A stretch of 64,000 nucleotides of DNA from a virus: IMG/VR virus record IMGVR_UViG_3300045988_126669, positions 33,217 through 97,216 of that record; one strand, written 5' to 3'. Position numbers and translations under genes: made by a program. Positions 14,885 through 60,677 of the stretch are shown piece after piece. The notes beneath the pieces were generated by a model. The model was not told where the DNA came from and did no database searches. It saw only the letters and a list, made by a program, of their open reading frames with translations. Every line of letters begins with the position of its first letter. The stretch's first letter is position 1.

Positions 14885-15008
14885 AGGAATCTCCTTTCTC
14901 TCCAATTTTTACTTTGCAAAATAAAAATAAAACGGGGATAAGAGCAATTACACTCTTATCCCCATCACTCTATTATTTTTCAAAAAATAATATTATTAAC
15001 TAATTTAA

Positions 15009-16883: not shown

Positions 16884-17867
16884 TTAGCCTCCAACAGCAA
16901 TGGTGCTGTTAGCAGCGGTCTTTCTACGAATATCGTTGTCAACAGTTTCGTCTTCTTCAATAATCTGAATAGCAGCCAAAACTTTCTTACTATGATCGAA
17001 ACGAGTATAGTCAGGGAATGCATCCATAGTAAAGGTGAAAGTGGAAGGATCACCAGAAGAAGCCATTGTAAAGTTAAAGTTGGACTGAATCTTACAGTTA
17101 GGAATAATAAATTCAGCAGGCATATCTACACCATCTTGATTACGGAATAAAGTAGAAGCTTCAAGATAATAGTTACCACCAAATTTATCAGCAGTAATTT
17201 CAATCTGCTTAGCACCAGATTCACGCTCAGTGTAATAATCAACCATTACAGAGTCGCATTTAGCATAATCATTCTCTAAATCGTTAGTAGTATAAGCCGC
17301 TCCAGTAGAACGAGCAAATCCCTTTACGGTAACACTAAAACCAGTGTCTCCAGTGGTAACTCCTTCATGTGCTAAATAAGGCTCAGAAATAATTTCGCCA
17401 TCCTTCATGAAGAAAACATAAACATAATCGTCATCTTTATGTTCATTATCAAGATAAGGGGCATAAGAGACAGGAATAATTAATCCATCAGTTTTAATGT
17501 CTTTTTCAGTATTAGCAGGGACAATGTCTTTAGTCTTATCAACAGTTTGAGTAATATGTTGCTTAATCTTATTGTTAGCAGAAGCCTCAACAAGACCAGC
17601 ACCGGAAAGAATCATGAAACCTTCAGGAGAAATAAGAGCATCTTCCATTGTGAAGGTAACAGTACGCTCGCCTTCCCATGCGACTAAGTTAGTATTACCA
17701 CGTCCACCTTGTGCGTATACGGTGGTAGCAGCGCCTTCCATACTGGAAGTCTTTAAAGTGTCGAAATAAATAACTGGCTCATTCTTATAAAATTGCTTAT
17801 TACCAATTTTTTGATTAGCCTTTGCCTTTAAAACGACATCGCAAATTTCGCGTACACCAAATTTCAT
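16884..17867 (-). CDS. putative major tail (tube) protein, 327 aa, no TAG, GC-richer codons
   Basis: Intact ORF with a GGAGGAAAAAAACCTATG start. Its position (after the head-tail genes, before chaperones and tape-measure) and its high-expression codon bias fit a major tail protein. Confidence 0.5.
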   Translation of the reverse strand: MKFGVREICDVVLKAKANQKIGNKQFYKNEPVIYFDTLKTSSMEGAATTVYAQGGRGNTNLVAWEGERTVTFTMEDALISPEGFMILSGAGLVEASANNKIKQHITQTVDKTKDIVPANTEKDIKTDGLIIPVSYAPYLDNEHKDDDYVYVFFMKDGEIISEPYLAHEGVTTGDTGFSVTVKGFARSTGAAYTTNDLENDYAKCDSVMVDYYTERESGAKQIEITADKFGGNYYLEASTLFRNQDGVDMPAEFIIPNCKIQSNFNFTMASSGDPSTFTFTMDAFPDYTRFDHSKKVLAAIQIIEEDETVDNDIRRKTAANSTIAVGG

Positions 17868-17891: not shown

Positions 17892-18617
17892 TTAATGGAT
17901 ATTTTTCATCCAGTTATCCGGCTTATTATCAGGCTTCGCGCCCGCTAATCTAGACCGGATATCAATATCCCAATTAATATAAAGTTGATATCTTTCAACA
18001 AGGTCATAGAGTTGGAACATTGTTAAATCCATTAAATCCTGTAAAGACATTGAATCAAGACCTATAGTAAGCATTGAAAGATACTAACTAAATATACTAG
18101 CATTAGCCGTGCCGTTTAATTCAGCGACACGTTGTCTACCTCGCATTAATTTATCGGCTATCTTTTTCGCGGCCGCATTTCCAGGATTAAATCCCATTTC
18201 TTGCGAAGCATTAGATTTAAAACAAAATATTTCTTTAATATATTCCTATAATATATTAAAATTGCTTTCATCAATCATTATTTGTGGGTCACCTTGTAAA
18301 ACAATTGACCTAGGGGTAAATAAAATATTTTGCTTTGGAAACAATAATGTAAGAACCTACATAGATGCTTGTTTTTTATCGGCCATCTCTTTTTCTTTCA
18401 TCATTGTCATAAATATCTAAAAATTATTTGTTTCTCTTAAAAGACTTTCGCCCGAATTCTCTATTATGTTTTTATCAATACATAAACACTAAATCCCCAA
18501 GAAAAGATCTTTTTCACCTATAAAAGAAATTTCTTTTATAGATGGCTAATGAATAGTGACTTCTAATTCAGGTATTGGTAAATCAATACCTGTCATTAAA
18601 CCAAGTCTAATATCCAT
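17892..18617 (-). CDS. head-tail joining/connector-like protein (241 aa, ~7 TAG)
   Basis: ATG overlaps the upstream stop as TAATG. Continuous in frame through TAGs to TAA at 17892. Confidence 0.45.
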
Positions 18618-19198
18618 TATTCTTCAGTTCTTTTTTTAAAATCTTCTATAAATCTTTCCTCGTCATTAGGATTTGGCATAGATTTTTTATCTTCTTCACC
18701 ATGAACTGCCTGATACATAAGACATAAACCAGCATATTCATCAGTTAAAATAATTTGATTTGCCCCAAGAAATTCTAACTTACCGATACCAGTTAAATGT
18801 GTTTTATCTATCATACTGTCAATTTCTGCAGCGATACGATAAGGGCGCAATTGATAATCTTTTAAATGCCATTGATCAAAATGACAAATAATATCGAATT
18901 CAATAATATTATCTCTAAACTCAGGATTTCCACTTTGTGTAAAATTATCAAAATTAATAATTACATAATTTAATACACTTCCATCAACATAAAGTTTAGG
19001 AATTAATTTAATATTTTTATTAAATAATTGAATCATTTGTTCGTCATTTAAATCTGGCTTATCAATAGCATCTTTTGTTGTATAATATAATAAGCGCTTT
19101 AATCTCTCATTTTTGCAGAGATGTTTTACAATAATTTCTAAATCTTTTTCAACAGAAAGAAAACTTGATTTAGGTAAATTTACACCATTAATTTTCAT
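18617..19198 (-). CDS. head-tail module protein (193 aa)
   Basis: Intact ORF with an AAGGAG RBS and a TAA stop. Confidence 0.55.
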   Translation of the reverse strand: MKINGVNLPKSSFLSVEKDLEIIVKHLCKNERLKRLLYYTTKDAIDKPDLNDEQMIQLFNKNIKLIPKLYVDGSVLNYVIINFDNFTQSGNPEFRDNIIEFDIICHFDQWHLKDYQLRPYRIAAEIDSMIDKTHLTGIGKLEFLGANQIILTDEYAGLCLMYQAVHGEEDKKSMPNPNDEERFIEDFKKRTEE

Positions 19199-21151: not shown

Positions 21152-21745
21152 TTATTTCTTGGAGGAAGTTTCCTCGGTTTTATTAATTACTTTATATCCA
21201 GAACCGCTTGTACGACGACCTTGAGTAATAGGTTCTTCTCTTACTACACGGCGCTTAGCAGCGGGTTCTTTCTCTACAATAGTATCTTCTTCTTTACTAG
21301 CGATATCATTAGCAATAGCTTTATCAACATCAAACCCAGTTTTTTCCTTCAAAGCTCTACGCTTATTAATATCAGTAATAGGAAGGCTAACAGATAGATT
21401 CTTGATTAAGTCAATAATTCCAATAGGAGCAAAATCAAGAGCATCTAAGAAAGCATCTAATGAGCCATTAAGAATTAAATCAGCAACTTGTTGCTCTGAC
21501 ATATTATATTCAGGTTCAGTATGAACATTAAGAGTATGAGTTACTTCTGGCTCTAAAATTTGTAAAAAATTAGCAATTAATTCGCGGCCGCCCGCCTGAT
21601 AAGTTAACTTCTCTAGCTCACCAAATGGAATGCGCTTAGTTTCACCGGGCGCAAATTCACGACGCAAATTAGTATCAGGAATAGTATAAACAACTACACT
21701 AGTGCTTCTATTTTTTACATTATAAATATCTTCATTATTAATCAT
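21152..21745 (-). CDS. hypothetical head protein (197 aa)
   Basis: Intact ORF with an AAAGGAG RBS and a TAA stop. Confidence 0.5.
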   Translation of the reverse strand: MINNEDIYNVKNRSTSVVVYTIPDTNLRREFAPGETKRIPFGELEKLTYQAGGRELIANFLQILEPEVTHTLNVHTEPEYNMSEQQVADLILNGSLDAFLDALDFAPIGIIDLIKNLSVSLPITDINKRRALKEKTGFDVDKAIANDIASKEEDTIVEKEPAAKRRVVREEPITQGRRTSGSGYKVINKTEETSSKK

Positions 21746-21831
21746 TATTCAATTTCTCCTTTTACTCATAAAACAAAAATATGGGGAGAGGGAGTTTAAT
21801 CCCTTCTCCCCATGGAATAATTTATATTAAA

Positions 21832-22938
21832 TTAGACAGTACCGTCAAGGCGACCATCATAAGTGATAACCTTACCAGTAACTCCATCATAATTCCAAGT
21901 ATACATCTGACCGAGAAGTGAAGTATCAACATAAGCACAGATGTTATTGGCAAGCATACAAACTACGCCAACCTTCTTGTAAACCTGAATCTCACGAGAA
22001 CGATCATAATTGTTGAATTCATCAACAATAGTGCCACCTTCGAAAGCAATCTTTACAGGCTTACCATCAGCGCCCGTAGGAATAACCCAAGCATAACCAG
22101 GATCAATAACCTTACGAGTATTGGTTTCATCTTCAAAGCCCTGCTCAAGAATAATAACCTTAGTACCCTTGTAAGTGGCAAGACGACCATTATTCCAAAG
22201 CTCGTTCTTCATAGCTTCAGTATATCTCCAAGCCTCATGAGGAATCATCTTAACAGCAAACTCATAAGTACAATAAATAGTAGGAGTACCATAAGCAGAA
22301 GCAATAGTGATCAAACGATCCATAGCAGCTTCATCAAATCCGGCAGCCGCAACGCGGTTAGCAGGAGGAAGCTGATTGATAGAAGATCTAAGAGCAGCAG
22401 CGACTTCTTTATAAATAAGTTCATCCATACCATCCATGATGATCTTGGTTACTTCACCAAAATCAACACGACCATCAAGGAATTCTTCGAAGCCAATCTG
22501 AGCAGCTCCGCCGATAGCGCTAGTGCGTACCTCGAAGGCTTCATTCTCTTTAGGTCCGAGCTTGAAGACTTCATAAATACCAGCAAGACCAACGCGAGTT
22601 ACAAACTGCTTAGCACGAGCACGATTATTAAGAGGACGGCGGAAAATAGGCTTATCACCCTGAGCGAAAGTCTTAACCTCAGCAAACTGATCATATTGCT
22701 GAATAACTTTCTTAGGAAGAACCTCATCAAGAGTCTGCTCAATCATAGAGAAAATAAGATTCTTATTTTCACGATAAAGAGCGTAAGTACCAGCCAACTC
22801 ATTCATTTCATTACGAAGAGTTTCATTTAAGGCTTCATAACTAAGATTTTTTCCCTCATAACTATAAGCAACAGGAGCAGAAGGATCAGCCTTAGCAACT
22901 TGCTTCATAAGAGCAATTAAATTATTTTTATCTAACAT
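21832..22938 (-). CDS. putative major capsid protein (HK97-fold-like, 368 aa, no TAG)
   Basis: Intact GC-richer ORF downstream of the scaffold-like gene. Size and position are typical of a major capsid protein. Confidence 0.55.
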   Translation of the reverse strand: MLDKNNLIALMKQVAKADPSAPVAYSYEGKNLSYEALNETLRNEMNELAGTYALYRENKNLIFSMIEQTLDEVLPKKVIQQYDQFAEVKTFAQGDKPIFRRPLNNRARAKQFVTRVGLAGIYEVFKLGPKENEAFEVRTSAIGGAAQIGFEEFLDGRVDFGEVTKIIMDGMDELIYKEVAAALRSSINQLPPANRVAAAGFDEAAMDRLITIASAYGTPTIYCTYEFAVKMIPHEAWRYTEAMKNELWNNGRLATYKGTKVIILEQGFEDETNTRKVIDPGYAWVIPTGADGKPVKIAFEGGTIVDEFNNYDRSREIQVYKKVGVVCMLANNICAYVDTSLLGQMYTWNYDGVTGKVITYDGRLDGTV

Positions 22939-22955
22939 TATCCTTTTCTCCTTTC

Positions 22956-23873
22956 TTACTTAATACGCATTACCTTGACGCCCTTTTGACCATCAGGCAT
23001 AGTATAAACTTTAACAACCTGCCAAGTCATTGAATCGTCGCCAGTTTTGCTAAGAATACCCTTTGTAGCAGCAGAAGGAGAAAGCTTATCTCCAACAGCA
23101 AGAGTCTCTTCATTAATCATATTAGTAGTATAAAGATCACCAATCATGGTCTTAAATACACGAGGAACCATAGAAGTGCCAGATTCCATGAACTTCTCAT
23201 GGTAGATACCCAACTTATGATATGGATCATTGGTCCAATTCATTTCATACATATCAGGAACATCAGTGAGAACCTTATCATAGTAATACTTTACAGGAAC
23301 ATTAGCAACCTGATGATTACTATCAAGAGTATATTCATTACCATCATAAGTAAATTTGCCGGTTTCATCGACATCATAAACACGACCAGCAATAGTAACA
23401 GTCTTTAAGCCCTGATCTGCGGAAACGGTCTGATTGATTAACTTATAAGTTTGACCCTTTTCATCAACGCCATTCCAGAAACGACCACCGTATTCAACCT
23501 CGGTATGCTCCCAATCATAAGGGCTATAAACACGAGCCTGATAGTCATCTTTAATCATAGCAAATTCGCAGTCCCACTGCTTACTGCCATCATAATGATC
23601 ACGATAAAGCTTAATCTCGTTATAAACGAGCATCCATTCACCTTCGCCAGTGAAGTTGACTTCGCCGATACCATTACCATTAGCAGCATAGTCATACTTT
23701 ACAAACTGACCGTTTTCAAGAATCTCAATGTCTTTATTGGCAGGAAGTTGAGCATAGATTTGAGCATTTCTTTGCGCGGAAAGGTGATTAGGCTCGACCT
23801 GACCGTAACCAAACTCAACATACTTTGCCTGAGACTTAATAGGAAGATTCTTATTCAAAAAGTCTTTAAACAT
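22956..23873 (-). CDS. capsid-associated/decoration-like protein (305 aa, no TAG)
   Basis: Intact ORF with a GGAGGACATACTAAATG start and high-expression codon usage. Confidence 0.5.
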   Translation of the reverse strand: MFKDFLNKNLPIKSQAKYVEFGYGQVEPNHLSAQRNAQIYAQLPANKDIEILENGQFVKYDYAANGNGIGEVNFTGEGEWMLVYNEIKLYRDHYDGSKQWDCEFAMIKDDYQARVYSPYDWEHTEVEYGGRFWNGVDEKGQTYKLINQTVSADQGLKTVTIAGRVYDVDETGKFTYDGNEYTLDSNHQVANVPVKYYYDKVLTDVPDMYEMNWTNDPYHKLGIYHEKFMESGTSMVPRVFKTMIGDLYTTNMINEETLAVGDKLSPSAATKGILSKTGDDSMTWQVVKVYTMPDGQKGVKVMRIK

Positions 23874-33066: not shown

Positions 33067-33438
33067 ATGAAAACTATTATCAATTCTTTTATCAAGGTTG
33101 TCTTCATCATTCTTCCTCTTGTTGTTATTTTAGCTATTTCCGCGCTCAAAACTCCCGAGGCTATGGCTTGTGAGGAAGCGCCCCAGTCCTACGACCTCTC
33201 GGTCATTGAGAATTGGTGTGGTGCAGGCACGGAACGCGGAAGTATTCGTTTCGTCGGTGCAGAGGTCTACGCACGCGAGGGTGATACCCTGACGCTCATT
33301 GACGAGCAGGGCAATCTGTGGGACGTGGAAGCACTCAACATTGATGACAACGACTTCTTGCTCTTGTGGATTAACGACAATGACACTGATACTGTGGAAG
33401 ATGATACAATTATTAAGGTATGGAGAGAGGCTTATTAA
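33067..33438 (+). CDS. secreted/membrane-anchored small protein (123 aa, N-terminal signal/TM)
   Basis: Promoter TTGACA 33006 / TATACT 33029. AAAGAAAGAGG RBS. TAA stop. Confidence 0.55.
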   Translation: MKTIINSFIKVVFIILPLVVILAISALKTPEAMACEEAPQSYDLSVIENWCGAGTERGSIRFVGAEVYAREGDTLTLIDEQGNLWDVEALNIDDNDFLLLWINDNDTDTVEDDTIIKVWREAY

Positions 33439-42885: not shown

Positions 42886-43071
42886 GCCTATTGACAAAAA
42901 TCCAATAGTGAGATAAAATGGCCGGCCGTTTGCGCCTGCCACGGCCGGAATTTCCATTATACCACCATCTCAGCAATTTGTCAATAGGAAATTTAGCCAA
43001 AAGTCCAACTAATTATTTTCCCGAATTTGGGTATTTTACCAATAGACAAGAATGTAATAATCTGCTATACT
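42886..43071 (+). promoter_or_regulatory. module copy 4: IR-flanked promoter (TTGACA 42891 / TAAAAT 42914), GC hairpin 42920-42948 + AATTTCCATTATACC, then P2 (TAGACA 43043 / TATACT 43066)
   Basis: cctattgacaa...ttgtcaatagg inverted repeat as in copy 1. Confidence 0.55.
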
Positions 43072-43102
43072 ATGGATACAGTAAAGAAAGGGGATACAAA
43101 CA

Positions 43103-43366
43103 ATGTATTACACTCACGATTTTTCTACTGAAAAGTTCTCTACTCGCGGAGAATGTGTAGAAGAACTTCTTTCTTCTATGGATTCTCTTGATATTTCAGA
43201 GTTTATCGCCCATCGCGTTTCTCTTGCTGATATTATTGACGAACGCATGGCCCGCGACCCCGAGGACTTTTACGACTGGTTAGATAGAGAAATTCAGATT
43301 GCGACTAATACCTATCTTGAATGGCATATCAACGAACACTACGGTCATATAGAGGATTTAGAATGA
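43103..43366 (+). CDS. hypothetical protein (87 aa)
   Basis: Driven by module-4 P2. RBS AAAGGGGA. Confidence 0.55.
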   Translation: MYYTHDFSTEKFSTRGECVEELLSSMDSLDISEFIAHRVSLADIIDERMARDPEDFYDWLDREIQIATNTYLEWHINEHYGHIEDLE

Positions 43367-43506
43367 TTATTTTAATCGGCATTTTCGGCCTCGTTTTTGG
43401 CTTTATTTTTGCCTATTCCTGTGAAAGTCTCGGGTGGGACTCTTTCAATATCGTCTACGCTATTCCTGTGCTGATTTTGCTTAATTTCTTATCTTCCGTG
43501 TATTGA
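43363..43506 (+). CDS. 47-aa two-TM membrane peptide
   Basis: ATGA overlap. Hydrophobic. Confidence 0.4.
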   Translation: MIILIGIFGLVFGFIFAYSCESLGWDSFNIVYAIPVLILLNFLSSVY

Positions 43507-43597: not shown

Positions 43598-43891
43598 ATG
43601 AGTAAACCGAAAACTTATGAGTATGAGGGAAGAACCTTTGAGGTCAAGGCATACAGCGGAGATGAGTATGGGGCTTTCTTATTCATCTATGTCTATGAAG
43701 TTATCCGCCCTACCCGCAAATTCTTTGGTCGAACTCGGTTCTTTTGCGAGGACTTTGTTCTTCTTGACCAATATCTTTCTATTGATGACGCAGTAAAAGA
43801 TGTCATCGCACGGGGTCTTTGGCAGGAAGAATATAAAAAGTTTGCCGAAGATAAATGGAAAGAATGGACAAATAAAGTGAGAAATTGCTAA
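43598..43891 (+). CDS. hypothetical protein (97 aa)
   Basis: Own promoter ACTTGACAAGC..TATAAT. Confidence 0.55.
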   Translation: MSKPKTYEYEGRTFEVKAYSGDEYGAFLFIYVYEVIRPTRKFFGRTRFFCEDFVLLDQYLSIDDAVKDVIARGLWQEEYKKFAEDKWKEWTNKVRNC

Positions 43892-43959
43892 AATTTCTCT
43901 TGACAACCGCGCAGACGTATGGTATAATACAGATACAGTAAAGGAAAGGGGTAATACCT

Positions 43960-44460
43960 ATGAAAATCACTTACATCAAGTCCCACGTTGTGGCTACTCG
44001 ACGTTCCATCAACTTTGACATGGACGGCACTATCGCTGACCTCTACGGCGTCAAGGATTGGCTTGCACTTCTCCGTTCGGAAAATCCTAAGCCCTATCGA
44101 ACTGCTGTTCCCATGTGCAATATGGCTGAACTGAATGAGGTTTGCGAACTTCTCCGCGCCGAGGGCTGGGAAATCAACATCATCACTTGGCTTTCCAAAG
44201 ATTCGAGCGAGGAATACAAAAACCTCGTGCGTGAAGCAAAGCGCGCGTGGCTTGAAGAACAGGGCTTCCACTATGACCACTTCCACGGCGTCCAGTATGG
44301 CGCGACTAAGGCCGACAGCGTGCGCGACCGCTATGACGTGTCCATCTTGGTTGACGATAATGAAAAGGTTCGGAATGGTTGGCACTTGGGCGAAACCATT
44401 GACCCGACCGCAGTAAACATTATCGAAAAACTTTCGGAACTTTTGGAGAAAAGGGCTTGA
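43960..44460 (+). CDS. HAD-superfamily 5'(3')-deoxyribonucleotidase-like phosphatase (166 aa)
   Basis: Motif I FDMDGTIAD, and a later ILVDDN motif. Own promoter CTCTTGACAACC..TATAAT. Confidence 0.55.
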   Translation: MKITYIKSHVVATRRSINFDMDGTIADLYGVKDWLALLRSENPKPYRTAVPMCNMAELNEVCELLRAEGWEINIITWLSKDSSEEYKNLVREAKRAWLEEQGFHYDHFHGVQYGATKADSVRDRYDVSILVDDNEKVRNGWHLGETIDPTAVNIIEKLSELLEKRA

Positions 44461-44515
44461 CAAAGCCCTACTCCAATGGTATAATAAATACATCAAATGA
44501 AAAGGAGAAAATAAA

Positions 44516-44722
44516 ATGGTTATTCTTTTAATTCTGCTGTCTCTCGCAGTTTCGTTCCTGCTTACCTCTGGTCTGGTTTGGCTTCTCTGCTGGCTTCTTC
44601 CCGCCCTCGGTATCACCGCAATCGGCACTTTCGTCATCGTGTTCTCGTGGAAGCTGGCACTCGCAATTTGGATTATTCTCGTGCTTTTGCAGTCCATCTT
44701 CTCGGTCGGTTCAAAGAGGTGA
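44516..44722 (+). CDS. 68-aa membrane protein
   Basis: Own promoter. RBS AAAGGAGAAAA. Confidence 0.5.
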   Translation: MVILLILLSLAVSFLLTSGLVWLLCWLLPALGITAIGTFVIVFSWKLALAIWIILVLLQSIFSVGSKR

Positions 44723-44727
44723 TAAAA

Positions 44728-44871
44728 ATGATGCCTTATTTTTGGGTTGATATTGGAATCATCGGAAAAGTAGTTGAAAAGATTGATGACGACCTTTTCA
44801 TCTATGAAACCGTTATCACCAAAGAACGCGCGACCGTGACCGCAAAATGGGTCAAGGAACATCTGCTTTAA
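44728..44871 (+). CDS. 47-aa hypothetical protein
   Basis: RBS AGAGGTGATAAAAATG. Confidence 0.4.
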   Translation: MMPYFWVDIGIIGKVVEKIDDDLFIYETVITKERATVTAKWVKEHLL

Positions 44872-44887
44872 GAGAGGAGAAATAAAA

Positions 44888-45145
44888 ATGAAAGTAAATT
44901 TTGGCACTAAGGGTCAGCTCCAAATTATCAACATTCTCAGCGGTGGCACGTTCACCACTCTGCGCTCCAACGGTAGCGGTATGGGAATGTATCTCAAAAT
45001 TGACAGCAACAACAACACGCCGTTTGTCCGGTCGAGAGGTTCGCAGTATTGCTACGCGGTGAATCTTGAAACGGGTCAGGTTCGCGAGTTTTCGCGCGAC
45101 AAGATGGTGACGCCGGTCAAGACCGAGGTCAATGTGATTGGCTAA
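44888..45145 (+). CDS. hypothetical protein (85 aa)
   Basis: RBS AGAGGAGAAATAAAAATG. Terminator 45150-45181. Confidence 0.55.
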   Translation: MKVNFGTKGQLQIINILSGGTFTTLRSNGSGMGMYLKIDSNNNTPFVRSRGSQYCYAVNLETGQVREFSRDKMVTPVKTEVNVIG

Positions 45146-45382: not shown

Positions 45383-45496
45383 ATGTCAGGAGGAAAGAGT
45401 AAGATCTTCGGAAAGGCAGTTCCCTTGACCATTATACCAAAATCCGACGGAATGTTCCAAGCGTGGCGTGCCGAACAAACTTTCAAAAAAGTTTGA
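45383..45496 (+). CDS. leaderless micro-ORF MSGGKSKIFGKAVPLTIIPKSDGMFQAWRAEQTFKKV (37 aa)
   Basis: The ATG is 5 nt after the P2 -10 box and there is no SD. ATGTCAGGAGG family. Confidence 0.35.
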   Translation: MSGGKSKIFGKAVPLTIIPKSDGMFQAWRAEQTFKKV

Positions 45497-45564
45497 AAAA
45501 CCCCTTGACAAACCGTTCTACGTAGGGTATAATGAATACATCAAATGAGAGAGGTAAAAACAAG

Positions 45565-45594
45565 ATGACTTCTAATGCTCGCCCACCGCCTTAA
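45565..45594 (+). CDS. leader micro-ORF MTSNARPPP*
   Basis: Promoter CCCTTGACAAACC..TATAAT. RBS GAGAGG. Poly-Pro then stop. Confidence 0.35.
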   Translation: MTSNARPPP

Positions 45595-45655
45595 AAACTA
45601 ATGGTTTATTGAATTGGATTGGATTAAGATTATAGATAAAGGTAGGTATAAACAA

Positions 45656-45688
45656 GATGTATAGTAATAAACCTCGCGACCGCCCCTA
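45656..45688 (+). CDS. leader micro-ORF MYSNKPRDRP*
   Basis: RBS AAAGGTAGG. Ends Arg-Pro-stop (TnaC-like). Confidence 0.35.
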
Positions 45689-45787
45689 AAAAAAATTGCA
45701 AAAACTATTGACAGCCTGCTCCGCCTATGATATAATAACTACATTAAAGACAAGGGCAGTCTTAAAAACCAGAAAGGAATTGATACT

Positions 45788-46168
45788 ATGGCTACTTCTA
45801 CTTCTACCACTAAGAAGCTCACCAAGCGCGACCGTTTTGAGGCTCTGCTCAAAATGAGCGAGGTTCAGGCAAATCCTGATATGGTGGCGTTCATCGAGCA
45901 TGAGATTGAACTGCTCGCCAAGAAGAACGCGGGCGACAAGAAGCCCACGGCCAAGCAGATGGAGAATGACGCTGTGAAGCAGGTCATTCTGGACGAGATG
46001 ACCGCGAACCCCGACAAGCTGTATACCGTAACCGACCTCATCAAGACCGTTCCCGAACTCGCGGAGTATACCAATCAGCGCGTTTCCGCTCTTCTGCGTC
46101 AGATGATTGACGCCGGTTCGGTTGTCAAGACGGTTGACAAGCGCAAGTCCTACTTCTCCCTCGCGTAA
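45788..46168 (+). CDS. hypothetical protein (126 aa), paralog of 48467..48844
   Basis: About 65% identity to the 48467 gene. Both carry the conserved GAAAGGAATTGATACTATG leader. Confidence 0.6.
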   Translation: MATSTSTTKKLTKRDRFEALLKMSEVQANPDMVAFIEHEIELLAKKNAGDKKPTAKQMENDAVKQVILDEMTANPDKLYTVTDLIKTVPELAEYTNQRVSALLRQMIDAGSVVKTVDKRKSYFSLA

Positions 46169-46310
46169 AGGAAAAAGGGCAGGGGATAAAAAAATCCCCT
46201 GCCCTGCAAAAAAAACTGTTGACAAACCAATAGCAAAGTGATATACTATGTATAGAGATTGAGAGAACGATGGTAAACCTCAATCTACTTTTCCAATAGG
46301 AGACGATAAA

Positions 46311-51831: not shown

Positions 51832-52536
51832 TTACTCCTTATTTTTCTTGTAATCATTTCTAAATACATATTCTTTTTTAAGCCCTTCTATATTGCACTA
51901 TGGCTTATATAAAGTAATTAAAGCTAATTCCATTGCTTCTAAATCTCTTACTGTAATATTAAAATCAGTCTTTAAATTTTCAACTATAATTAAAGGTTTT
52001 AACATAATAGTTCTATTACTTTCTTTAGCTGACTATAATATTTTATATAATTCAGTTTTATCTTCAAAATTTCTACTATTCATAAACTATTTATGCTATC
52101 CAAATCTTGTTCCAAAATTTTTATTTGTTTTACCAATATAAATTAAAATATTATCTATATAAATACCATAAATACCGTGCTAATAATAAAGAGGATCTTT
52201 AGTCTAACGTCTCTTTTTAACTGAAGATTCTTCCACCTAACCTGGAATTTTCTTTTTAATTACTTTATATTTTCGAGGAACTTCTCTTTTAATTATCTGC
52301 TATTCTTCTTTTTGTTGTGATAATTTAGTTAAAGATAAATATTCTCTTATAGTTTTTTCTTTTGTTAAAATATAAGAATCTTTTATATCATATTTACTTC
52401 TATCTTTTTCTATATCTTCTATAATATCATTATAATTTTCATTATTAGACATTCTTTCTAATAAAATATATGTGTCATTCCGTATACTATGACCTATTAT
52501 TTTTTCCCATTCTGCTTTTAACATTTGTTTATTCAT
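51832..52536 (-). CDS. GIY-YIG homing endonuclease-like protein (234 aa, ~9 in-frame TAG)
   Basis: ...YYQHGIYGIYIDNILIYIGKTNKNFGTRFGQHK... matches the GIY-x10-YIG + Arg motifs, followed by ...LEAMELALITLYKPQCN (Glu/Asn). Continuous only with TAG=sense. Confidence 0.6.
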
Positions 52537-52559
52537 CACCTTTTGTTCATTTATAAGTC

Positions 52560-52765
52560 TTGCAAAAACTGTAGATTTTTTGCAAACTTGTTTGCAAAAA
52601 TTCCTTAAATTGCAAATTTGCAAACTTGTTTGCAAAAATTTTGCATTTTTGTATATTATATATTGCTTTGTGCAAAATGCAAAAATCATTGTAAATTGCA
52701 CAAATTTGTAATTGCAAATTGTTGCAATATTGCAAGTTTTGCAACAAAATTTTTGCAAAATTGCA
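52560..52765. repeat. dense array (>15 copies) of palindromic TTTGCAAA / TTGCAA(A/T) motifs
   Basis: gcaaaaactgtagattttttgcaaacttgtttgcaaaaattccttaaattgcaaatttgcaaacttgtttgcaaaaattttgca...attgcacaaatttgtaattgcaaattgttgcaatattgcaagttttgcaacaaaatttttgcaaaattgcaa. Intergenic between the HTH gene and the GIY-YIG gene. Confidence 0.7.
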
Positions 52766-52766
52766 A

Positions 52767-53168
52767 TTAAAATACAAATTCTATATCTTTTTCCTTACGC
52801 TTTTTCCATCCTTCACTATGATCTACAGAACTTTTACTAATACCCAACTCTTCAGATATCTAAGTAGAATTCATACCATTTTTAGCTAAATTATAAATTT
52901 CATTATCATCAACTACTCTTTTACGACCATAATTATTTCCATTATTTATTTTATTTATATAGTCCTATTTACTTTTTTCAATAGCACCTTTAACAAAATT
53001 CAAACCCATAGCAACAACAGGGTCATCTTGAAATTGAGGTTCATTACCGGTTCCATATTGAACCATATCATATATAATTTTCATTTGTTGTTCATTAGGT
53101 AAGCCTTTAATGTTTTCTAACCACTCGCCATAAAATACAAATCTATGTAAATCCTTTGTATTATCCAC
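52767..53168 (-). CDS. HTH DNA-binding protein (133 aa; HTH NSTQISEELGISKSSV), 2 TAG
   Basis: GTG after a GGGAGGG RBS. I walked the frame through TAGs at 52965 and 52860 to TAA 52767. Confidence 0.5.
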
Positions 53169-53361
53169 GCGGTTTCCCCTCCCCCTAAACCTCCTCAAAG
53201 TCAGCTAAAAAGCTCTCATCGACGGAGAATATCCAACAATTATATTGCGGGAACTTCGGGTTCGGCATCATCTACAAAGGGAAATGTCCTCTTTCCACTA
53301 ATTTTTCCATTACTTTAAGAGAATATACTATCATATTCTTCTTTGTATTTTGATTTTCCAT
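53161..53361 (-). CDS. hypothetical 66-aa protein (2 TAG)
   Basis: RBS AAGGAAGG + ATG. Exactly 67 codons to TAA. Confidence 0.35.
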
Positions 53362-54947: not shown

Positions 54948-55547
54948 ATGTTTATCTTCTTCTTGAAAACGCTGGTGGGCGGATTTGTTCTACCGACCTT
55001 AATTATTTTTCTGATTTTCGCCATTCATTCTGCATATTGTAGCTATGGCTATTATAGCACTCTTTCCGATCCTAAGGCCAAGCACTTCCGCAATTGGTCT
55101 CACCGCGACCGCGTTGACATTCCCCGTCAAATTATTCCTGCCTTTTGGATCGGCGTTTGTCTTTATCTTGCCGTAAGTATGTTCGGTGGAGTTATGATGT
55201 CTTCCATTACCGAAGATTATGCTAACTATGATTATACGATTGCGGAAGCCAAAGAGTTAACGAGTATGGATAATGATGGCTGTATCTATACTTACCGCGC
55301 ATTCGAGGGTGAAAGTGTTTACTATACTTATCTTACACTTAGCGCTGATGGCATTACAAGCACTGAAAATTATCCTGTGAATAGCACAGTAGTTATTTAC
55401 TCTAATCAGGTTCCGCACATTGAGAAGCGTCTCCCGCGTTATGGCGATTGGAGAGAGTGGTTCTTTGTCTGCACTAAATCAACGCGAGCTTATCTTTATA
55501 TTCCAGAAGGAACAGATGTAGCGAAAGACTATATTGTGGAGAAGTGA
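54948..55547 (+). CDS. membrane protein (199 aa)
   Basis: RBS AAGGAG. N-terminal TM helices. Confidence 0.55.
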   Translation: MFIFFLKTLVGGFVLPTLIIFLIFAIHSAYCSYGYYSTLSDPKAKHFRNWSHRDRVDIPRQIIPAFWIGVCLYLAVSMFGGVMMSSITEDYANYDYTIAEAKELTSMDNDGCIYTYRAFEGESVYYTYLTLSADGITSTENYPVNSTVVIYSNQVPHIEKRLPRYGDWREWFFVCTKSTRAYLYIPEGTDVAKDYIVEK

Positions 55548-55548
55548 A

Positions 55549-55818
55549 ATGAACAAAGGTGATTTAATTTATTTAAAAATGTCTAATGGCGACCGCGCTT
55601 TTATTAATGTAAATGAGGTCGTTATAGTTCTTGTTTCTCATACTACCAAAAGTAATTCAGATGATAATAATATCTCCACTGAAACTTTTGAAACAAAACT
55701 TGAGTTTTGTATGAGCAATAAGTCTCATTATATGTATACCTTTGATGACAATGATCCTGATGGTATGAGAGTTATAAGACAACTCAAAAATTTTGTTTCT
55801 GAGGAGGCATTTAGATGA
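55549..55818 (+). CDS. hypothetical protein (89 aa)
   Basis: Starts 2 nt after the upstream TGA. Confidence 0.45.
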   Translation: MNKGDLIYLKMSNGDRAFINVNEVVIVLVSHTTKSNSDDNNISTETFETKLEFCMSNKSHYMYTFDDNDPDGMRVIRQLKNFVSEEAFR

Positions 55819-56060
55819 TTGTAATTTTACACAACTTCCGCGGTTTTAAATATCTTATCAATACTAATAATATCAATAGCGTTAGCTTTTCCGCGGTCGA
55901 TTCTAAACAATATGCAGATGAGATTGCGGAAGCAGGCGGGAGTCCCCTCACGCGCATTTACATTGATTGGTATGGCGGTTCTTCCACAAGCATTCTTGCA
56001 ATTTCCGAAGTGGCTGATGAATTTCTCAATCTTTTTGAAAACGCGGTTGAAATCTTTTAA
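55815..56060 (+). CDS. hypothetical protein (81 aa)
   Basis: ATGA overlap. RBS GAGGAGG. Confidence 0.5.
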   Translation: MIVILHNFRGFKYLINTNNINSVSFSAVDSKQYADEIAEAGGSPLTRIYIDWYGGSSTSILAISEVADEFLNLFENAVEIF

Positions 56061-56118
56061 TTTCTAAATATATTATAACAAAAATTTTGGGTAAAATCAA
56101 TTAATGGAGGAATAATAT

Positions 56119-56334
56119 ATGAGTCGTATCCCTGTTCTATTCATTTATGATGAGTCTCGCGATGAAATTTATTGCGCAACAAATCTTGGTGAATCTGATG
56201 CGCTTGAAATCACTATGTCTGCTATTGAGGAGAACGTCGAAGAGCAATTCCAGTGTCATAAGTTCGATGCTCAGATCTATAATAAAGCGCTTGAACATAT
56301 GATTGTCTATTACGAATATGTTCCCGTTCTCTGA
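56119..56334 (+). CDS. hypothetical protein (71 aa)
   Basis: RBS AATGGAGGAATAATATATG. Terminator 56336-56375. Confidence 0.5.
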   Translation: MSRIPVLFIYDESRDEIYCATNLGESDALEITMSAIEENVEEQFQCHKFDAQIYNKALEHMIVYYEYVPVL

Positions 56335-56375
56335 TCTTTAAAGGATTTGCGTAAACCGCAAATCCTTTTTTGATT

Positions 56376-56435
56376 TTTTATAAAAAATAATATATAATAT
56401 ATATATAAAGTAAAGAAAGAAAGGAAATAAAAATT
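56376..56435 (+). promoter_or_regulatory. class-III AT-rich promoter module TTTTATAAAAAATAATATATAATATATATATAAAGTAAAGAAAGAAAGG
   Basis: Near-identical ~45-nt blocks at 59588, 60678 and 62695, each directly after a terminator and before an RBS+ATG. Confidence 0.45.
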
Positions 56436-56756
56436 ATGACTACTTCTAATTCTAAGATTAAAACTCATTCCATTGGTATTCTTTGTGATACGGCCGGAGA
56501 CCATAATTTCTATTTCCTGAATGCGTCCGAGGCTGATATGCAGGAAATGTTTATGGAATATTGTCGAGATATGGTCGATGATAGTCTTATGGAGCGTCAG
56601 TTCGAAATGATTCAGAAAGATTCCGATTATGATTGGTATCTTTACCACGGTGAGATGACCGGCGAATGGACAAGGAGATTTTCTTCTTATCTCGATATGA
56701 TGAACGAGGTCGCAAATGATGTTTTCATTGATTTCGTTGATGCGGTTGAAATGTAA
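56436..56756 (+). CDS. hypothetical protein (106 aa)
   Basis: Follows the class-III module. Confidence 0.55.
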   Translation: MTTSNSKIKTHSIGILCDTAGDHNFYFLNASEADMQEMFMEYCRDMVDDSLMERQFEMIQKDSDYDWYLYHGEMTGEWTRRFSSYLDMMNEVANDVFIDFVDAVEM

Positions 56757-56767
56757 GGAGAATAACT

Positions 56768-57043
56768 ATGAAAGAAATTACTTGTTATAAAATCGAAGAT
56801 GAAATGACTGGTAAGTCTTGGACATTCGCCAACATCTCTGAGGCAGAAGCGGAAGAACTTTATCTTGCTTTCCTCGAAGGCGCAATCGAAGAAGATATTA
56901 TGGAAACTCAGCGAATTGAATATTACGATCTTCCTCTTCCTGCTCCTGATTGGTGGAAGATCGATCATCGAGAAGAGGTTGATAAACTTCTTCTTATGGA
57001 TGGCGAGTTCTATATGTATAAATTTAATGCTTACGCATTTTAA
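56768..57043 (+). CDS. hypothetical protein (91 aa)
   Basis: RBS AAGGAGAATAACTATG. Confidence 0.5.
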   Translation: MKEITCYKIEDEMTGKSWTFANISEAEAEELYLAFLEGAIEEDIMETQRIEYYDLPLPAPDWWKIDHREEVDKLLLMDGEFYMYKFNAYAF

Positions 57044-57054
57044 GGAGGATATAA

Positions 57055-57953
57055 ATGGGAAAATATAAAGATATAAGTGGTTAGAAATTTGGACGTCTAA
57101 CTGCTTTAGAAATAGATGTAGAAAAAACTAAAACACATAGTTCTACTTATTGGAAATGTTAGTGTGATTGTGGTAATATAAAGAGTATTAGTTTAAATAG
57201 ACTAAGAAATGGTAGCACCAAATCCTGCGGTTGTTATAGGAAAGAAGTAGCAAGTAATAATACCAAAAAAGATTTAGTAGGCCAAAAATTTGGACGTTTA
57301 ACTGTTATTAAAGATTCTGGTAAGAGAAAAGATAACCGTATTATTTGGGAATGCCAATGCGAATGTGGTAATATTGTTTATTATCCAACTAACAATTTAA
57401 CCACTGGAAATGCATAGTCTTGTGGGTGTTTACATAAAGAAATAGTAGCTAATTTAACTAAAAAAGATTTAACTGGTTAGCGTTTTGGTAAATTAACTGT
57501 ATTATTTGAACAATCTGAAAGAAAAAATAATCGTATTATTTGGCATTGTCGATGTGATTGTGGTAATGAATGTGATACTTCAAGTAAATCTTTATTAAGT
57601 GGAAGAAAAATTTCTTGTGGTTGTTTAAAAACATCTCTTGGAGAATACCGCATAAGTAATATTTTATCTGAAAATAATATTGCTTATATTAAGGAATATA
57701 AATATAAAAATTTAGGTAATTTAAGATATGACTTTTATTTACCTGATTATAATAGATTAATTGAATTTGACGGAGAACAACATTTTATGGAAGTTCCTAC
57801 TTGGGGAGAATTAGAAGCTACACAAAAACGAGATAAAATAAAAAATGATTATGCTTTATCTCATAGTATTCCTTTAGTAAGGATCCCTTATTGGGAACGT
57901 GATAACATTACTTTAGACTTATTACTTGGTAATAAATATTTACAAAAGGAGTG
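57055..57953 (+). CDS. homing-endonuclease-like protein (299 aa): three zinc-ribbon repeats (GQ[KR]FG[RK]LT..W.C.C[DE]CGN..SCGC) + a C-terminal PD-(D/E)xK DUF559/Vsr-like domain; 4 in-frame TAGs at 57082, 57160, 57415, 57478
   Basis: RBS TAAGGAGGA + ATG. There is no ORF in the standard code. With TAG=Gln the three repeats align, with CAA Gln at the equivalent position (57283). The C-terminus reads RYDFYLPDYNRLIEFDGEQHF. Confidence 0.6.
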
Positions 57954-57959
57954 ATACTA

Positions 57960-58697
57960 ATGAATTTACCTGGCATTTATCCATTTTTCAATGATTTATG
58001 GAAAGAATATCAATCTTGTTATGTAATTTCAGACACTCATTTTGATGATGAAGAATTAGCTAAAGGGTGTAATCGTCCTTCTACCGATGAATTAATAAAA
58101 AGCATTAATTCTAAAGTTGGGAAAAATGATGTATTAATTCATTTAGGTGATGTAGGAAAAATTGAGTGCGTTAAAAAATTACGAGGCGGATTAAAAATAC
58201 TAATTATGGGTAATCATGATTCTGGTTCATCAAATTATCAACGCCAAATTTGGGAGAAAAAATTTGATAAAGAAATTTATCAAAAAGATGAAGCTCTTAT
58301 AGAAATGAAACGTTTATATCCTGATTGTATTTATACAATTGATGAAGGATATGCTTTTAATCGTCCATTTGAGTATTGGTTAGTTAAAGCTGATAATAAA
58401 TTATTTGATTATGTCTTTCCTGGCGCACTCATCATTGGTGAGAAACTTATGCTTTCTCACGAACCGATTAAGCAGGACTGGGCTCTCGATCTTCACGGCC
58501 ACGACCACAATCATAAAGAGACGGATATCTATCACAAGAATGTTTGTGTAGATGTGTTTGGCCCCGCCCCTTTGAACTTGAATCAGTTTATGAAAAATGG
58601 TCCAACTGCAAAGATCGGGAGCGTCCACAGAAAAACAATCGACAAAGCCACAATCAAAGCCCGAAAGCGAGGAGGTAAAAAGATATGGGAGAAATGA
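57960..58697 (+). CDS. calcineurin-like metallophosphoesterase (phage Ser/Thr phosphatase-like), 245 aa
   Basis: Motifs ISDTHFDD, HLGDVG, GNHD, GHDH. RBS AAAAGGAGTGA. Confidence 0.65.
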   Translation: MNLPGIYPFFNDLWKEYQSCYVISDTHFDDEELAKGCNRPSTDELIKSINSKVGKNDVLIHLGDVGKIECVKKLRGGLKILIMGNHDSGSSNYQRQIWEKKFDKEIYQKDEALIEMKRLYPDCIYTIDEGYAFNRPFEYWLVKADNKLFDYVFPGALIIGEKLMLSHEPIKQDWALDLHGHDHNHKETDIYHKNVCVDVFGPAPLNLNQFMKNGPTAKIGSVHRKTIDKATIKARKRGGKKIWEK

Positions 58698-58855
58698 TTA
58701 TTATGCTATTTATCATATTAGTATTTTTCGGTTTTATGTATATGGATTTACTGGATGATGATACTATGTCTCTCAATGAGAAGTATTATTACTGCGGTAT
58801 GGGCATGTTGCTCTGCCTGTTTGCTGGTTTCATTCAGTCAGTCTTTTATGCTTAA
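58694..58855 (+). CDS. 53-aa two-TM membrane peptide
   Basis: Hydrophobic. Overlaps the upstream stop. Confidence 0.4.
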   Translation: MIIMLFIILVFFGFMYMDLLDDDTMSLNEKYYYCGMGMLLCLFAGFIQSVFYA

Positions 58856-58928
58856 AGCAATAATTCTTTGTTTTTGCGCTCTTGGCATTTTATCCGTTTT
58901 GTTCGATGAATTAGATTAAGGAGGGTGT

Positions 58929-59135
58929 ATGGTAGGATTTATTATAGAAATTATTCTTGGATTAGTTGTAATAAGGATTGCTTTGTATATCTTTAACCTT
59001 ATCGACGGCGCCGGCTCTTCCAAAGATATGTTTCTGATTGATACTTGTATCATTACCGGAACTCTTCTACTTGTAATTTCCGCGCTCCCAATCGTTTTAG
59101 GATTGTATGGAGTAATTCAATATTTTATTCATTAA
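58929..59135 (+). CDS. 68-aa membrane protein
   Basis: RBS AAGGAGGGTGTATG. Confidence 0.5.
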   Translation: MVGFIIEIILGLVVIRIALYIFNLIDGAGSSKDMFLIDTCIITGTLLLVISALPIVLGLYGVIQYFIH

Positions 59136-59148
59136 GGAGAAGATAGTT

Positions 59149-59553
59149 ATGCTTTATGTAGTTTTTATTCTTGCACTTGTGGTCTTTATTGCTCTTATAG
59201 TTTGGAGTTGTAATAAATATTCTGCTCTTGGTTGTATTAGTTCGATTGTTGGCTTCATCGGCACCGTTATCTTTGGAATCGTAATGGTATTTTCTACTAT
59301 TGTGGTTATCAATGAAAATGTATACAGTGATTCTCTCTATGAGAAATATACAACTCGTAAGGCCACTCTTGAATGGCGACTTGAACAGGACTATACTGAT
59401 AATGATAACAACCTTGGCGCAACCGAACTTTATGAAGAAATTCAGGAATATAATGAAGACCTTGCGAGCGCAAAGGCTAATCGCGCGAACCCTTGGTTGA
59501 AGATCTATACCGGAGAATATGTTGATCGACTCGAATTTATTGAGTTGAAGTAA
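59149..59553 (+). CDS. 134-aa protein with an N-terminal TM region
   Basis: RBS AAGGAGAAGATAGTTATG. Terminator 59563-59600. Confidence 0.55.
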   Translation: MLYVVFILALVVFIALIVWSCNKYSALGCISSIVGFIGTVIFGIVMVFSTIVVINENVYSDSLYEKYTTRKATLEWRLEQDYTDNDNNLGATELYEEIQEYNEDLASAKANRANPWLKIYTGEYVDRLEFIELK

Positions 59554-59587
59554 ACAATAAGGACTTATGTTAATTCATAAGTCCTTA

Positions 59588-59650
59588 TTTTATTTTTATA
59601 AAAAAATATAATATAATATATATATAAAGTTAAGAAAGGAAATGAAAATT
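59588..59650 (+). promoter_or_regulatory. class-III AT-rich promoter module TTTTATAAAAAAATATAATATAATATATATATAAAGTTAAGAAAGG
   Basis: Conserved with 56376, 60678 and 62695. Confidence 0.45.
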
Positions 59651-59926
59651 ATGTATGTAGAGCTTTGGGATCTAATTGGTAGAAAATACACTGATCCAGA
59701 AGATGATGAATACGCAATGCTCGTTTCTAAGGATGGCGTTCATATTGCCAACGCGGTTGAGATTCTTTTCTCCAAGGCTAAGGGCGAGGGTCGAATCCGC
59801 GAATATAACATTGAAATCCCCTGCGTTTTCGATACAATCGGCGTAGAGATGGTTTACGTGCTAATTGTCTCTTGGATTAATGCAGATGGCTCTCTTGGAA
59901 CTTATTATACGGAGGTATGTCATTAA
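59651..59926 (+). CDS. hypothetical protein (91 aa)
   Basis: Follows the class-III module. Confidence 0.5.
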   Translation: MYVELWDLIGRKYTDPEDDEYAMLVSKDGVHIANAVEILFSKAKGEGRIREYNIEIPCVFDTIGVEMVYVLIVSWINADGSLGTYYTEVCH

Positions 59927-60174
59927 TGACTGTTTATGCTCTTTGTTATCATTATGATAGTTTTGGCGGTGATGATACCGCGGTGCTTAGCCTTTATTCT
60001 ACTGAGGAAAAGGCTTTTGAAGCAGGACGAAAGAAAGAAAAGGAAGCGCAAGAGCGTTGGGAAAAAAATAAGTCTGTCTCATATTGCAAAAAGCCTTCGT
60101 TTGATGGATTTTTCGTTCACGGCTACGGCGACTACTATGTAAAGATTATGGAAGTTGATAAGGAGACTATCTAA
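59917..60174 (+). CDS. hypothetical protein (85 aa)
   Basis: Overlapping operon start. Confidence 0.5.
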   Translation: MSLMTVYALCYHYDSFGGDDTAVLSLYSTEEKAFEAGRKKEKEAQERWEKNKSVSYCKKPSFDGFFVHGYGDYYVKIMEVDKETI

Positions 60175-60491
60175 TGGTTGTAATGATTTATGCTTATGAA
60201 AGCGTCTATTGCGGACTCCACGGCATCAATACTGGTGGAGTGTATGAGGTTGATAATGTCGCAGAAGCCGATGAGATTGGTAGAGAACTGGCTTATGACG
60301 TAATCGAGGGCTATGGCCATGTCTTTGAGGATTACGACCAAGAAGAGGTAAAGGAAGGCATTGAGTGGGAAGTTTGGCCTGTCCGCGATAATACTGGGCT
60401 TTCCGTCAGTGAGCTTGACTGCGAATTTGCGAACCTCGGTAGAAGTCTCTTTATTGATGAGTATTGTTGTGTAGATATCCACAATACTTAA
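60174..60491 (+). CDS. hypothetical acidic protein (105 aa)
   Basis: ATG overlap. Confidence 0.5.
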   Translation: MVVMIYAYESVYCGLHGINTGGVYEVDNVAEADEIGRELAYDVIEGYGHVFEDYDQEEVKEGIEWEVWPVRDNTGLSVSELDCEFANLGRSLFIDEYCCVDIHNT

Positions 60492-60677
60492 TATAAAACT
60501 CTGGAAGGGCATTCTCTTCCCCAATAGGATAAAGTCTCAGTCCATACCGCTCAGGGGTGCTATTCAATAAGGTTAGATTATAAGTGGGTATGATAATTCT
60601 GCTAACAAACTTGAATAGGCTATATTATATACGCTGAATCCTTGATTGTATGATACCTCCAAAAAAGAGTTTTATTG

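Follow-up and report, generated by a model that had tools for sequence, protein, structure and literature searches.

The window analyzed here, a stretch of 64,000 nucleotides (nt) from the viral IMG/VR record IMGVR_UViG_3300045988_126669 (positions 33,217 to 97,216), contains on its plus strand, at 57055–57954, a real gene of 299 codons that is not visible to standard-code annotation. It can be read only with TAG as a sense codon. The window makes up about one-third of a roughly 190-kb genome (relatives, such as IMGVR_UViG_3300045988_118866, measure 180–196 kb), which very probably is that of a large tailed phage of gut type using TAG for Gln (genetic code 15), and the gene itself very probably encodes a free-standing homing endonuclease built from three Cys-rich modules and a Vsr-like nuclease domain. 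This finding is correct and well supported; both the recoding and the kind of gene are already known.

The reading frame extends from an ATG at 57055 to a TGA stop codon at 57952–57954 and comprises 299 sense codons without any in-frame TAA or TGA. At the local composition (38.7% A and 33.3% T), the chance of such an uninterrupted run is ~1e-10. Four in-frame TAGs occur at 57082, 57160, 57415, and 57478, corresponding to codons 10, 36, 121, and 142. A strong ribosome-binding site (RBS), AGGAGG at 57043–57048, is separated by 6 nt from the ATG (57055–57057), and the complete start signal hence occupies 57043–57057. Under the standard code, the same frame yields merely two listed fragments of 30 and 55 amino acids (aa). 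For this reason, an earlier sequence-only reading of the window, made without database searches, was right at the usual 60-aa cut-off in reporting no open reading frame (ORF) for this interval, and the 299-aa protein that it proposed with TAG read through was verified. Its start at 57055 is accurate, and the end that it gave, 57953, omits the last base of the stop codon. The TAGs at 57082, 57160, and 57478 were named by it correctly; the fourth, at 57415, had been left undiscussed.

The N-terminal part of the protein is formed by three tandem Cys-rich repeats of ~60 residues each. Repeat 1 covers 57070–57246 (aa 6–64, with boundaries from hmmsearch), repeat 2 57271–57441 (aa 73–129), and repeat 3 57466–57633 (aa 138–193). 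Between pairs of repeats, 23–31 residues are identical over 56–60 aligned positions, and the alignment scores exceed shuffled controls by 15–30 standard deviations; the three paralogous repeats noticed by eye thus hold computationally. Each repeat contains five conserved Cys residues in the arrangement C-x-C-x-C-G-x(18)-C-G-C. In the family alignment, C37, C39, and C58 (repeat 1 numbering) are invariant, and C35 and C60 reach at least 90% conservation. Structural information comes from the AlphaFold2 model of a 96–97% identical homologue, P0001, with 73 aligned homologues and a mean predicted local distance difference test score (pLDDT) of 89.7. Herein, three strands and additional helices are predicted for every repeat. 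The repeats had been called zinc ribbons. They are paralogous and Cys-rich as described, and the zinc ribbon stays an unverified guess, since no convincing structural match to the repeats was found in the PDB and the model of a single repeat (pLDDT 59.7) was too poor for structure searching; the motif is C-x-C-x-C-G...C-G-C rather than two CxxC knuckles. The modules presumably bind DNA and may bind metal. Family members examined contain 1 to 8 tandem repeats, usually fused to a Vsr-like nuclease, and the same nuclease domain is present in 107 of the 120 best homologues.

The repeats allow TAG to be compared with ordinary codons within one gene. The Gln column of the G-Q-K-F-G motif is encoded by TAG in repeat 1 (codon 10, 57082–57084), by CAA in repeat 2 (57283), and by TAG in repeat 3 (codon 142, 57478–57480, here within G-Q-R-F-G). 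The W-x-C-Q-C column shows TAG in repeat 1 (codon 36, 57160–57162, within W-K-C-Q-C), CAA in repeat 2 (57355), and CGA in repeat 3. The codons that had been read off for these two columns proved exact on alignment. The remaining TAG (codon 121, 57415–57417), located in repeat 2 at the residue preceding S-C-G-C, stands opposite Lys in one of the remaining repeats and Ile in the other and is uninformative within this gene. As each column is represented by only one sequence, the internal repeats are a good lead to Gln rather than the proof that they had been taken for.

The C-terminal domain (57634–57951, aa 194–299) is predicted to be a Vsr-like nuclease of the PD-(D/E)xK fold. According to the model, its fold is closest to Vsr and to the homing endonuclease I-Bth0305I, and the domain, placed behind the three tandem modules, would be of the “EDxHD” type represented by I-Bth0305I. 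Six residues are invariant in the family, namely D226, E237, D239, H243, D260, and K263. Together, they run in the order and at roughly the spacing given for the active sites of I-Bth0305I and Vsr (PMC3239194); the first five of them follow the order and similar spacing of D196/acidic/N208/H213/D222 in I-Bth0305I, a correspondence of spacing only and not of superposition. A database search returned more than 7,895 homologues. Matches to PHROG 374, 559, and 9084 (E = 2.6e-63 to 6.8e-28) carry the labels “HNH endonuclease” and “homing endonuclease,” and the PHROG 374 match spans the repeats only. No HNH (ββα-metal) family was detected in the Pfam scan, the nuclease domain being of the PD-(D/E)xK fold, and no NUMOD match indicative of a NUMOD-type helix-turn-helix was present in Pfam, the N terminus consisting of the three Cys-rich, β-rich repeats. 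Scans of Pfam and NCBIfam gave no significant family for the protein; weak matches to DUF6527, MauE, and sactipeptide models were rejected as noise from the Cys pattern. The sequence-only reading had described the C terminus as PD-(D/E)xK DUF559/Vsr-like. This is right at the level of the predicted fold. Membership in the Pfam families did not stand, as the protein translated with TAG as Gln matched neither DUF559 (PF04480) nor Vsr (PF03852) at E ≤ 1. The sole related Pfam match was DUF2726 (E = 0.18, 12 bits compared with a cut-off of 24.7 bits), for which precomputed matches exist on some homologues. Neither a profile nor the isolated C-terminal domain retrieved anything from the PDB sequences, and similarity to I-Bth0305I (PDB 3r3p) was likewise absent. 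Because of these empty sequence searches, the nuclease assignment rests on the predicted structure of the homologue.

The genomic position of the gene was compared in ten syntenic loci, which were fetched via the downstream metallophosphoesterase gene and whose flanking genes show 85–100% nucleotide identity to the window. L091–L096 contain no endonuclease gene between the upstream gene g56768 and the phosphoesterase gene; herein, the stop codon of the upstream gene, AAGGAGG, and an ATG lead directly into the phosphoesterase gene. At the junction, the window reads ...TTTTAAGGAGGATATAAATG followed by GGAAAA..., whereas L091, L092, and L095 read ...TTTTAAGGAGGATATAAATG followed by ATTCCTGGACTT... 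of the phosphoesterase gene. The 5′ sequence of the endonuclease-free, L091-type phosphoesterase allele is ATGATTCCTGGACTTTATGAAATCTTTAATACGCGCTGGGGCGGTCAG.... The endonuclease gene begins exactly at the RBS and ATG that are used by the phosphoesterase gene in the empty-site relatives. A replacement RBS for the phosphoesterase gene, AAAGGAG (57945–57951), lies within the last endonuclease codons, a layout also found in L001, L005, and L006. In L088–L090, the same site is taken by another family member, which likewise bears TAGs. There, an extra spacer of ~80 nt (~3965–4040) separates the old RBS from the endonuclease gene and contains a GC-rich inverted repeat (GGCCCGGTTGAATAATCGGGTTGGC) as well as its own AAAGGAG site. 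Further family members are located just 3′ of the phosphoesterase gene in L096 and upstream of g54948 in L091.

The flank downstream of the insertion is mosaic. Nucleotide identity to the close relatives is 0.9–1.0 up to 57048, only 0.45–0.66 within the phosphoesterase gene (57960–58697) until ~58300, and 0.95 by 58500. The diverged 5′ part of the phosphoesterase gene (57960–58400) is also low in GC, amounting together with the endonuclease gene to 26–30% compared with 35–41% in the flanks. At the protein level, phosphoesterase residues 1–30 resemble L005 most closely (0.80), a locus with an orthologous endonuclease, and residues 181–210 are 0.96–1.00 identical to those of L088–L096. Judged from these sequence comparisons, an empty site combined with a diverged, low-GC flank is the footprint expected of a free-standing homing endonuclease gene. 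The tract 57960–58400, at the 5′ side of the phosphoesterase gene, likely arose by co-conversion and likely also contains the target of the enzyme. The suggestion of a homing endonuclease, made earlier from the letters alone, agrees with the empty site, the other occupants, the mosaic flank, and the predicted Vsr-like fold.

The following course of homing may be envisaged. The endonuclease gene would take over the RBS and ATG of the phosphoesterase gene and return a new RBS from its own 3′ end. During mixed infection, the enzyme would cut the allele without an endonuclease gene, within the 5′ portion of the phosphoesterase, and repair from the endonuclease-bearing genome would copy the endonuclease gene together with ~450 bp of flanking phosphoesterase sequence.

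For the meaning of TAG, database homologues of the endonuclease mostly have Gln at the TAG columns. However, such evidence can be circular since gene calls may already translate TAG as Gln: public gene calls render a 97%-identical copy (P0001; L001–L004, Logan contigs) as 299 aa with TAG as Gln, and the DNA of P0001 has the same four TAGs. The Gln residues of P0001 were, thus, rejected as external support. Therefore, the DNA of 80 relatives was collected from IMG/VR and translated with TAG as X. From these translations, 229 unique repeat units were extracted by profile, and TAG positions were compared, for each column of the repeat profile, with the residues encoded by ordinary sense codons. 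The match columns contain 67 TAGs. Three columns hold 33 of these 67 as well as 222 of the 406 sense-coded Gln residues, and the fraction of sense-coded Gln in these columns is 0.48, 0.37, and 0.20 against a background of 0.033. The first is column 5 (TAGs 57082 and 57478), with 15 TAGs; the second is column 29 (TAG 57160), with 13 TAGs; and the third is column 49 (TAG 57415), with 5 TAGs and, next to Gln, a Lys fraction of 0.35. Across columns, TAG counts correlate with sense-coded Gln counts at r = 0.95, the next best residue being Lys at 0.43. The summed log-odds for TAG are +84.6 bits for Gln and +44.5 bits for Lys and are negative for all other residues. The TAGs hence gather mainly in columns dominated by sense-coded Gln.

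Orthologues at the same site point in the same direction. L005 and L006, which derive from other large recoded phages and occupy the same genomic position, encode proteins of 67% and 62% identity, respectively. Among same-site orthologues, TAG is exchanged with CAG or CAA at codons 36, 77, 101, 121, and 142. Codon 10 is TAG throughout four orthologues, codon 36 is CAG in L005, codon 121 is CAA in L006 and AAA in L005, and codon 142 is CAA in both. All four TAGs persist in a copy diverged by 2.4% (21–22 of 900 nt), whose codon changes are synonymous in 13 cases and nonsynonymous in nine. Outside this gene, the portal gene of the phage contains 11 TAGs, of which seven align with Gln in the closest homologue, and Gln is the commonest aligned residue overall. 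Column statistics, orthologue exchanges, and the portal gene agree with each other and with the Gln assignment originally drawn from the repeats; by these comparisons, it is very unlikely that TAG is read otherwise than as Gln in this gene.

The recoding extends across the window. The minus-strand block 53–31547 is continuous only with TAG read through. This late block contains 187 in-frame TAGs in 18 ORFs, including six in the gene of the terminase large subunit, 11 in the portal gene, and 84 in an ORF of 2775 aa. Expressed as TAG/(TAG+CAA+CAG), TAG usage is 0.37 in the late block and 0/93 in 32 plus-strand early ORFs. The endonuclease gene, with 4/10, shows late-type usage within the TAG-free early block, and a GIY-YIG-like ORF at 51832–52536 on the minus strand reaches 8/12. 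Selfish nuclease genes are the sole TAG-bearing genes in this otherwise standard-code-compatible block, and late-only translation is a plausible consequence. Owing to its four TAGs, the endonuclease would be translatable only once TAG is decoded; hence, late production is expected, although the gene is located among TAG-free early genes. Decoding would be performed by a phage tRNA(CUA) presumably encoded outside the window.

Several observations weigh against the interpretation as a Gln-recoded homing endonuclease. Pfam, NCBIfam, and the PDB are all without a sequence-level match to the protein. No tRNA gene was found by ARAGORN in the 64-kb window, and the decoder is, thus, not seen; published surveys report tRNA(CUA) in only ~40% of TAG-recoded genomes. 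Lys is the second-best residue in the column test and the most frequent sense-coded residue in the column of TAG 57415. Finally, the orthologues in L005 and L006 always adjoin the phosphoesterase gene, which could mean a stable, domesticated partnership.

This last point leads to the alternative that survives best. The protein could be a nuclease that has been domesticated or serves an accessory function, for instance the exclusion of competing phages or the degradation of host DNA, and that is stably tied to the phosphoesterase rather than actively homing. Such a role would fit the orthologues of two distant genomes, which likewise immediately precede the phosphoesterase gene, and the supply of the phosphoesterase RBS by the endonuclease gene. 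It is, however, considered unlikely, as the closest relatives lack the endonuclease at a precisely empty site, other family members occupy the same or neighboring intergenic sites, and the mosaic flank has its boundary within the phosphoesterase coding sequence. In addition, the endonuclease gene is a low-GC island, and among named nucleases, the structure matches best that of a proven homing endonuclease.

TAG might also be a sense codon that specifies Lys or, by near-cognate read-through, a mixture of residues. The +44.5 bits for Lys, its first rank among sense residues at the 57415 column, and the AAA in L005 at that position are in line with this. Nevertheless, Gln is ahead of Lys by 40 bits, and the Lys signal is what is expected from Gln/Lys interchange at exposed positions. 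The TAGs of the portal gene align with Gln far more often than with Lys, and TAG to CAG, as observed at codon 36, is a single transition. For code-15 phages, Gln is also the result of published proteomics and of predictions of tRNA identity (PMC9523058; PMC10607447). A Lys or mixed reading is, thus, very improbable.

Least likely of all, and hardly credible, is a decaying pseudogene whose four TAGs are real nonsense mutations that preclude the full-length protein: selfish endonuclease genes frequently decay, the standard code leaves only pieces of 30 and 55 aa, and a suppressor tRNA was not seen in the window, but the TAGs occupy Gln columns (r = 0.95), TAA, TGA, and frameshifts are absent over 299 codons (P ~1e-10), all four TAGs are retained in the 2.4%-diverged copy, the orthologues at 62–67% identity are intact too while exchanging TAG with CAA or CAG, the catalytic-type and Cys columns are all conserved, and essential genes of the same phage contain 6–84 TAGs each. 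It is the agreement of column statistics, orthologue exchanges, the diverged copy, and the portal gene that makes both this and other amino-acid assignments very unlikely.

The preferred interpretation, a TAG-recoded homing endonuclease gene, can be compared with several described systems. The phage is distantly related to the group of phAss-1 and Enterococcus phage EF1; its portal protein is 38% identical to that of Phage Phass-1, the nearest named phage, and ~29% to those of EF1-like phages, and a megablast search of 55000–60000 against 50,697 GenBank phage records gave no match. The reassignment of TAG to Gln in gut phages was established by bioinformatics and proteomics (PMC7886860; PMC9523058; bioRxiv 10.1101/2021.08.26.457843). 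For Phass-1, assigned to the “Caudoviricetes code 15 clade,” three tRNA-SUP-CTA genes are predicted to carry Gln (PMC10607447). As in code-15 phages (crAss-like phages and the phAss-1 group), TAG occurs here in late and structural genes, early genes are TAG-free, and TAG aligns with Gln in homologues. Differences are that the kinship to the named code-15 phages is only distant and that no suppressor tRNA is present within the 64 kb. Relatives of the phage group are reported to have many tRNAs, including tRNA-SUP-CTA; window positions 1–64000 have none. Among the loci collected, tRNAs with a CUA anticodon were found only in two unrelated ones, L026 (1352–1445) and L085 (10313–10389), where ARAGORN labels them Pyl; alignment with tRNA-Gln genes was uninformative on their amino-acid identity. 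Both adjoin tRNA arrays, and both contigs encode members of the endonuclease family.

I-Bth0305I is the described example of the “EDxHD” Vsr-like homing endonuclease family (Taylor et al. 2011, PMC3239194; PDB 3r3p). Both proteins are phage-borne and combine an N-terminal DNA-binding region, presumed in the present case, with a C-terminal nuclease, and the invariant D...E-x-D...H...D follows the order of the active-site positions in that family with similar spacing. Sequence similarity to 3r3p is not detectable. The DNA-binding regions differ, as I-Bth0305I has NUMOD helix-turn-helix motifs and the protein described here has the three C-x-C-x-C-G...C-G-C repeats instead. In contrast to I-Bth0305I, the gene is free-standing and intergenic and does not reside within an intron or intein; the Rfam scan matched no family over the whole 64-kb window and hence gave no sign of a surrounding group I intron. 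In this respect, it resembles the free-standing phage homing endonuclease genes (T4 seg/mob, Hef), which are found at boundaries of genetic exchange (PMC10055350). Like these, it occurs sporadically at an intergenic site by a conserved gene with empty alleles in close relatives, its diverged flank fits co-conversion, and a further probable endonuclease gene, the GIY-YIG-like ORF 51832–52536, is nearby. Unlike seg (GIY-YIG) and mob (HNH), it uses other nuclease and DNA-binding domains and carries recoded stop codons. A recoded-stop endonuclease gene in an early region is also known from the TGA-recoded “Agate” phages (Borges et al., bioRxiv 10.1101/2021.08.26.457843). For this intron-encoded enzyme in an early gene, it was already proposed that recoded stops delay production until late infection (bioRxiv 10.1101/2021.08.26.457843). 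The “Agate” case involves TGA read as Trp and an intron-encoded enzyme, whereas here TAG is read as Gln in a free-standing gene.

Current understanding is unchanged by these results. The gene is a self-contained illustration of TAG as Gln in this phage, and it demonstrates how standard-code annotation overlooks real genes in such recoded genomes. It adds a TAG-recoded, free-standing case to the published idea that recoded stops delay selfish nucleases until late infection. With some sites occupied, others empty or filled by different family members, and the limit of the exchange mapped, the locus amounts to a natural experiment. The family of repeat-array nucleases is large (>7,895 matches), is without a Pfam model, and is often mislabelled as “HNH endonuclease.” A more speculative and rather doubtful idea is that the C-x-C-x-C-G...C-G-C modules form a modular array reading DNA sequence and that the TAGs serve as an intrinsic timer by which selfish nucleases of code-15 phages appear late in infection. 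Should recognition be divided among the modules, a few base pairs to each, the family would consist of natural “finger-array nucleases,” and shuffling of repeats could reprogram their specificity.

Some further features of the window and its relatives may be mentioned. The early block contains a second low-GC island (21–25% GC) on the minus strand, consisting of ORF 51832–52536 and ORF 52767–53219. The former has a GIY-YIG-like motif (HGIYGIYIDN...IYIGKT), eight TAGs, and a weak match to a PHROG “endonuclease”; the latter, located upstream of it, encodes 150 aa with three TAGs and a helix-turn-helix–like C terminus. This island (51832–53219) is probably another recoded homing endonuclease gene. 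Other TAG-containing ORFs of the minus strand (43615–44907, 45386–46225, and 60117–60524), as well as the plus-strand ORF 42918–43424, were rejected as antisense or out-of-frame artefacts over standard-code plus-strand genes. In L006, which is a recoded phage of 124 kb, a full sigma-70–type factor (regions 1.2–4; 12143–13054) lies downstream of the orthologous endonuclease–phosphoesterase pair, separated from it by a few genes. Within the late block, the 84 in-frame TAGs of the 2775-aa ORF (6578–14905, minus strand) make up 44% of its Gln-type codons. Five virion-type ORFs of the same block (16884–17867, 18617–19198, and 21152–23873, minus strand) contain no TAG at all, their neighbors having 3–84 each, and three of the five are higher in GC (0.38–0.40). 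Possibly, TAG is avoided by the most highly expressed structural genes.
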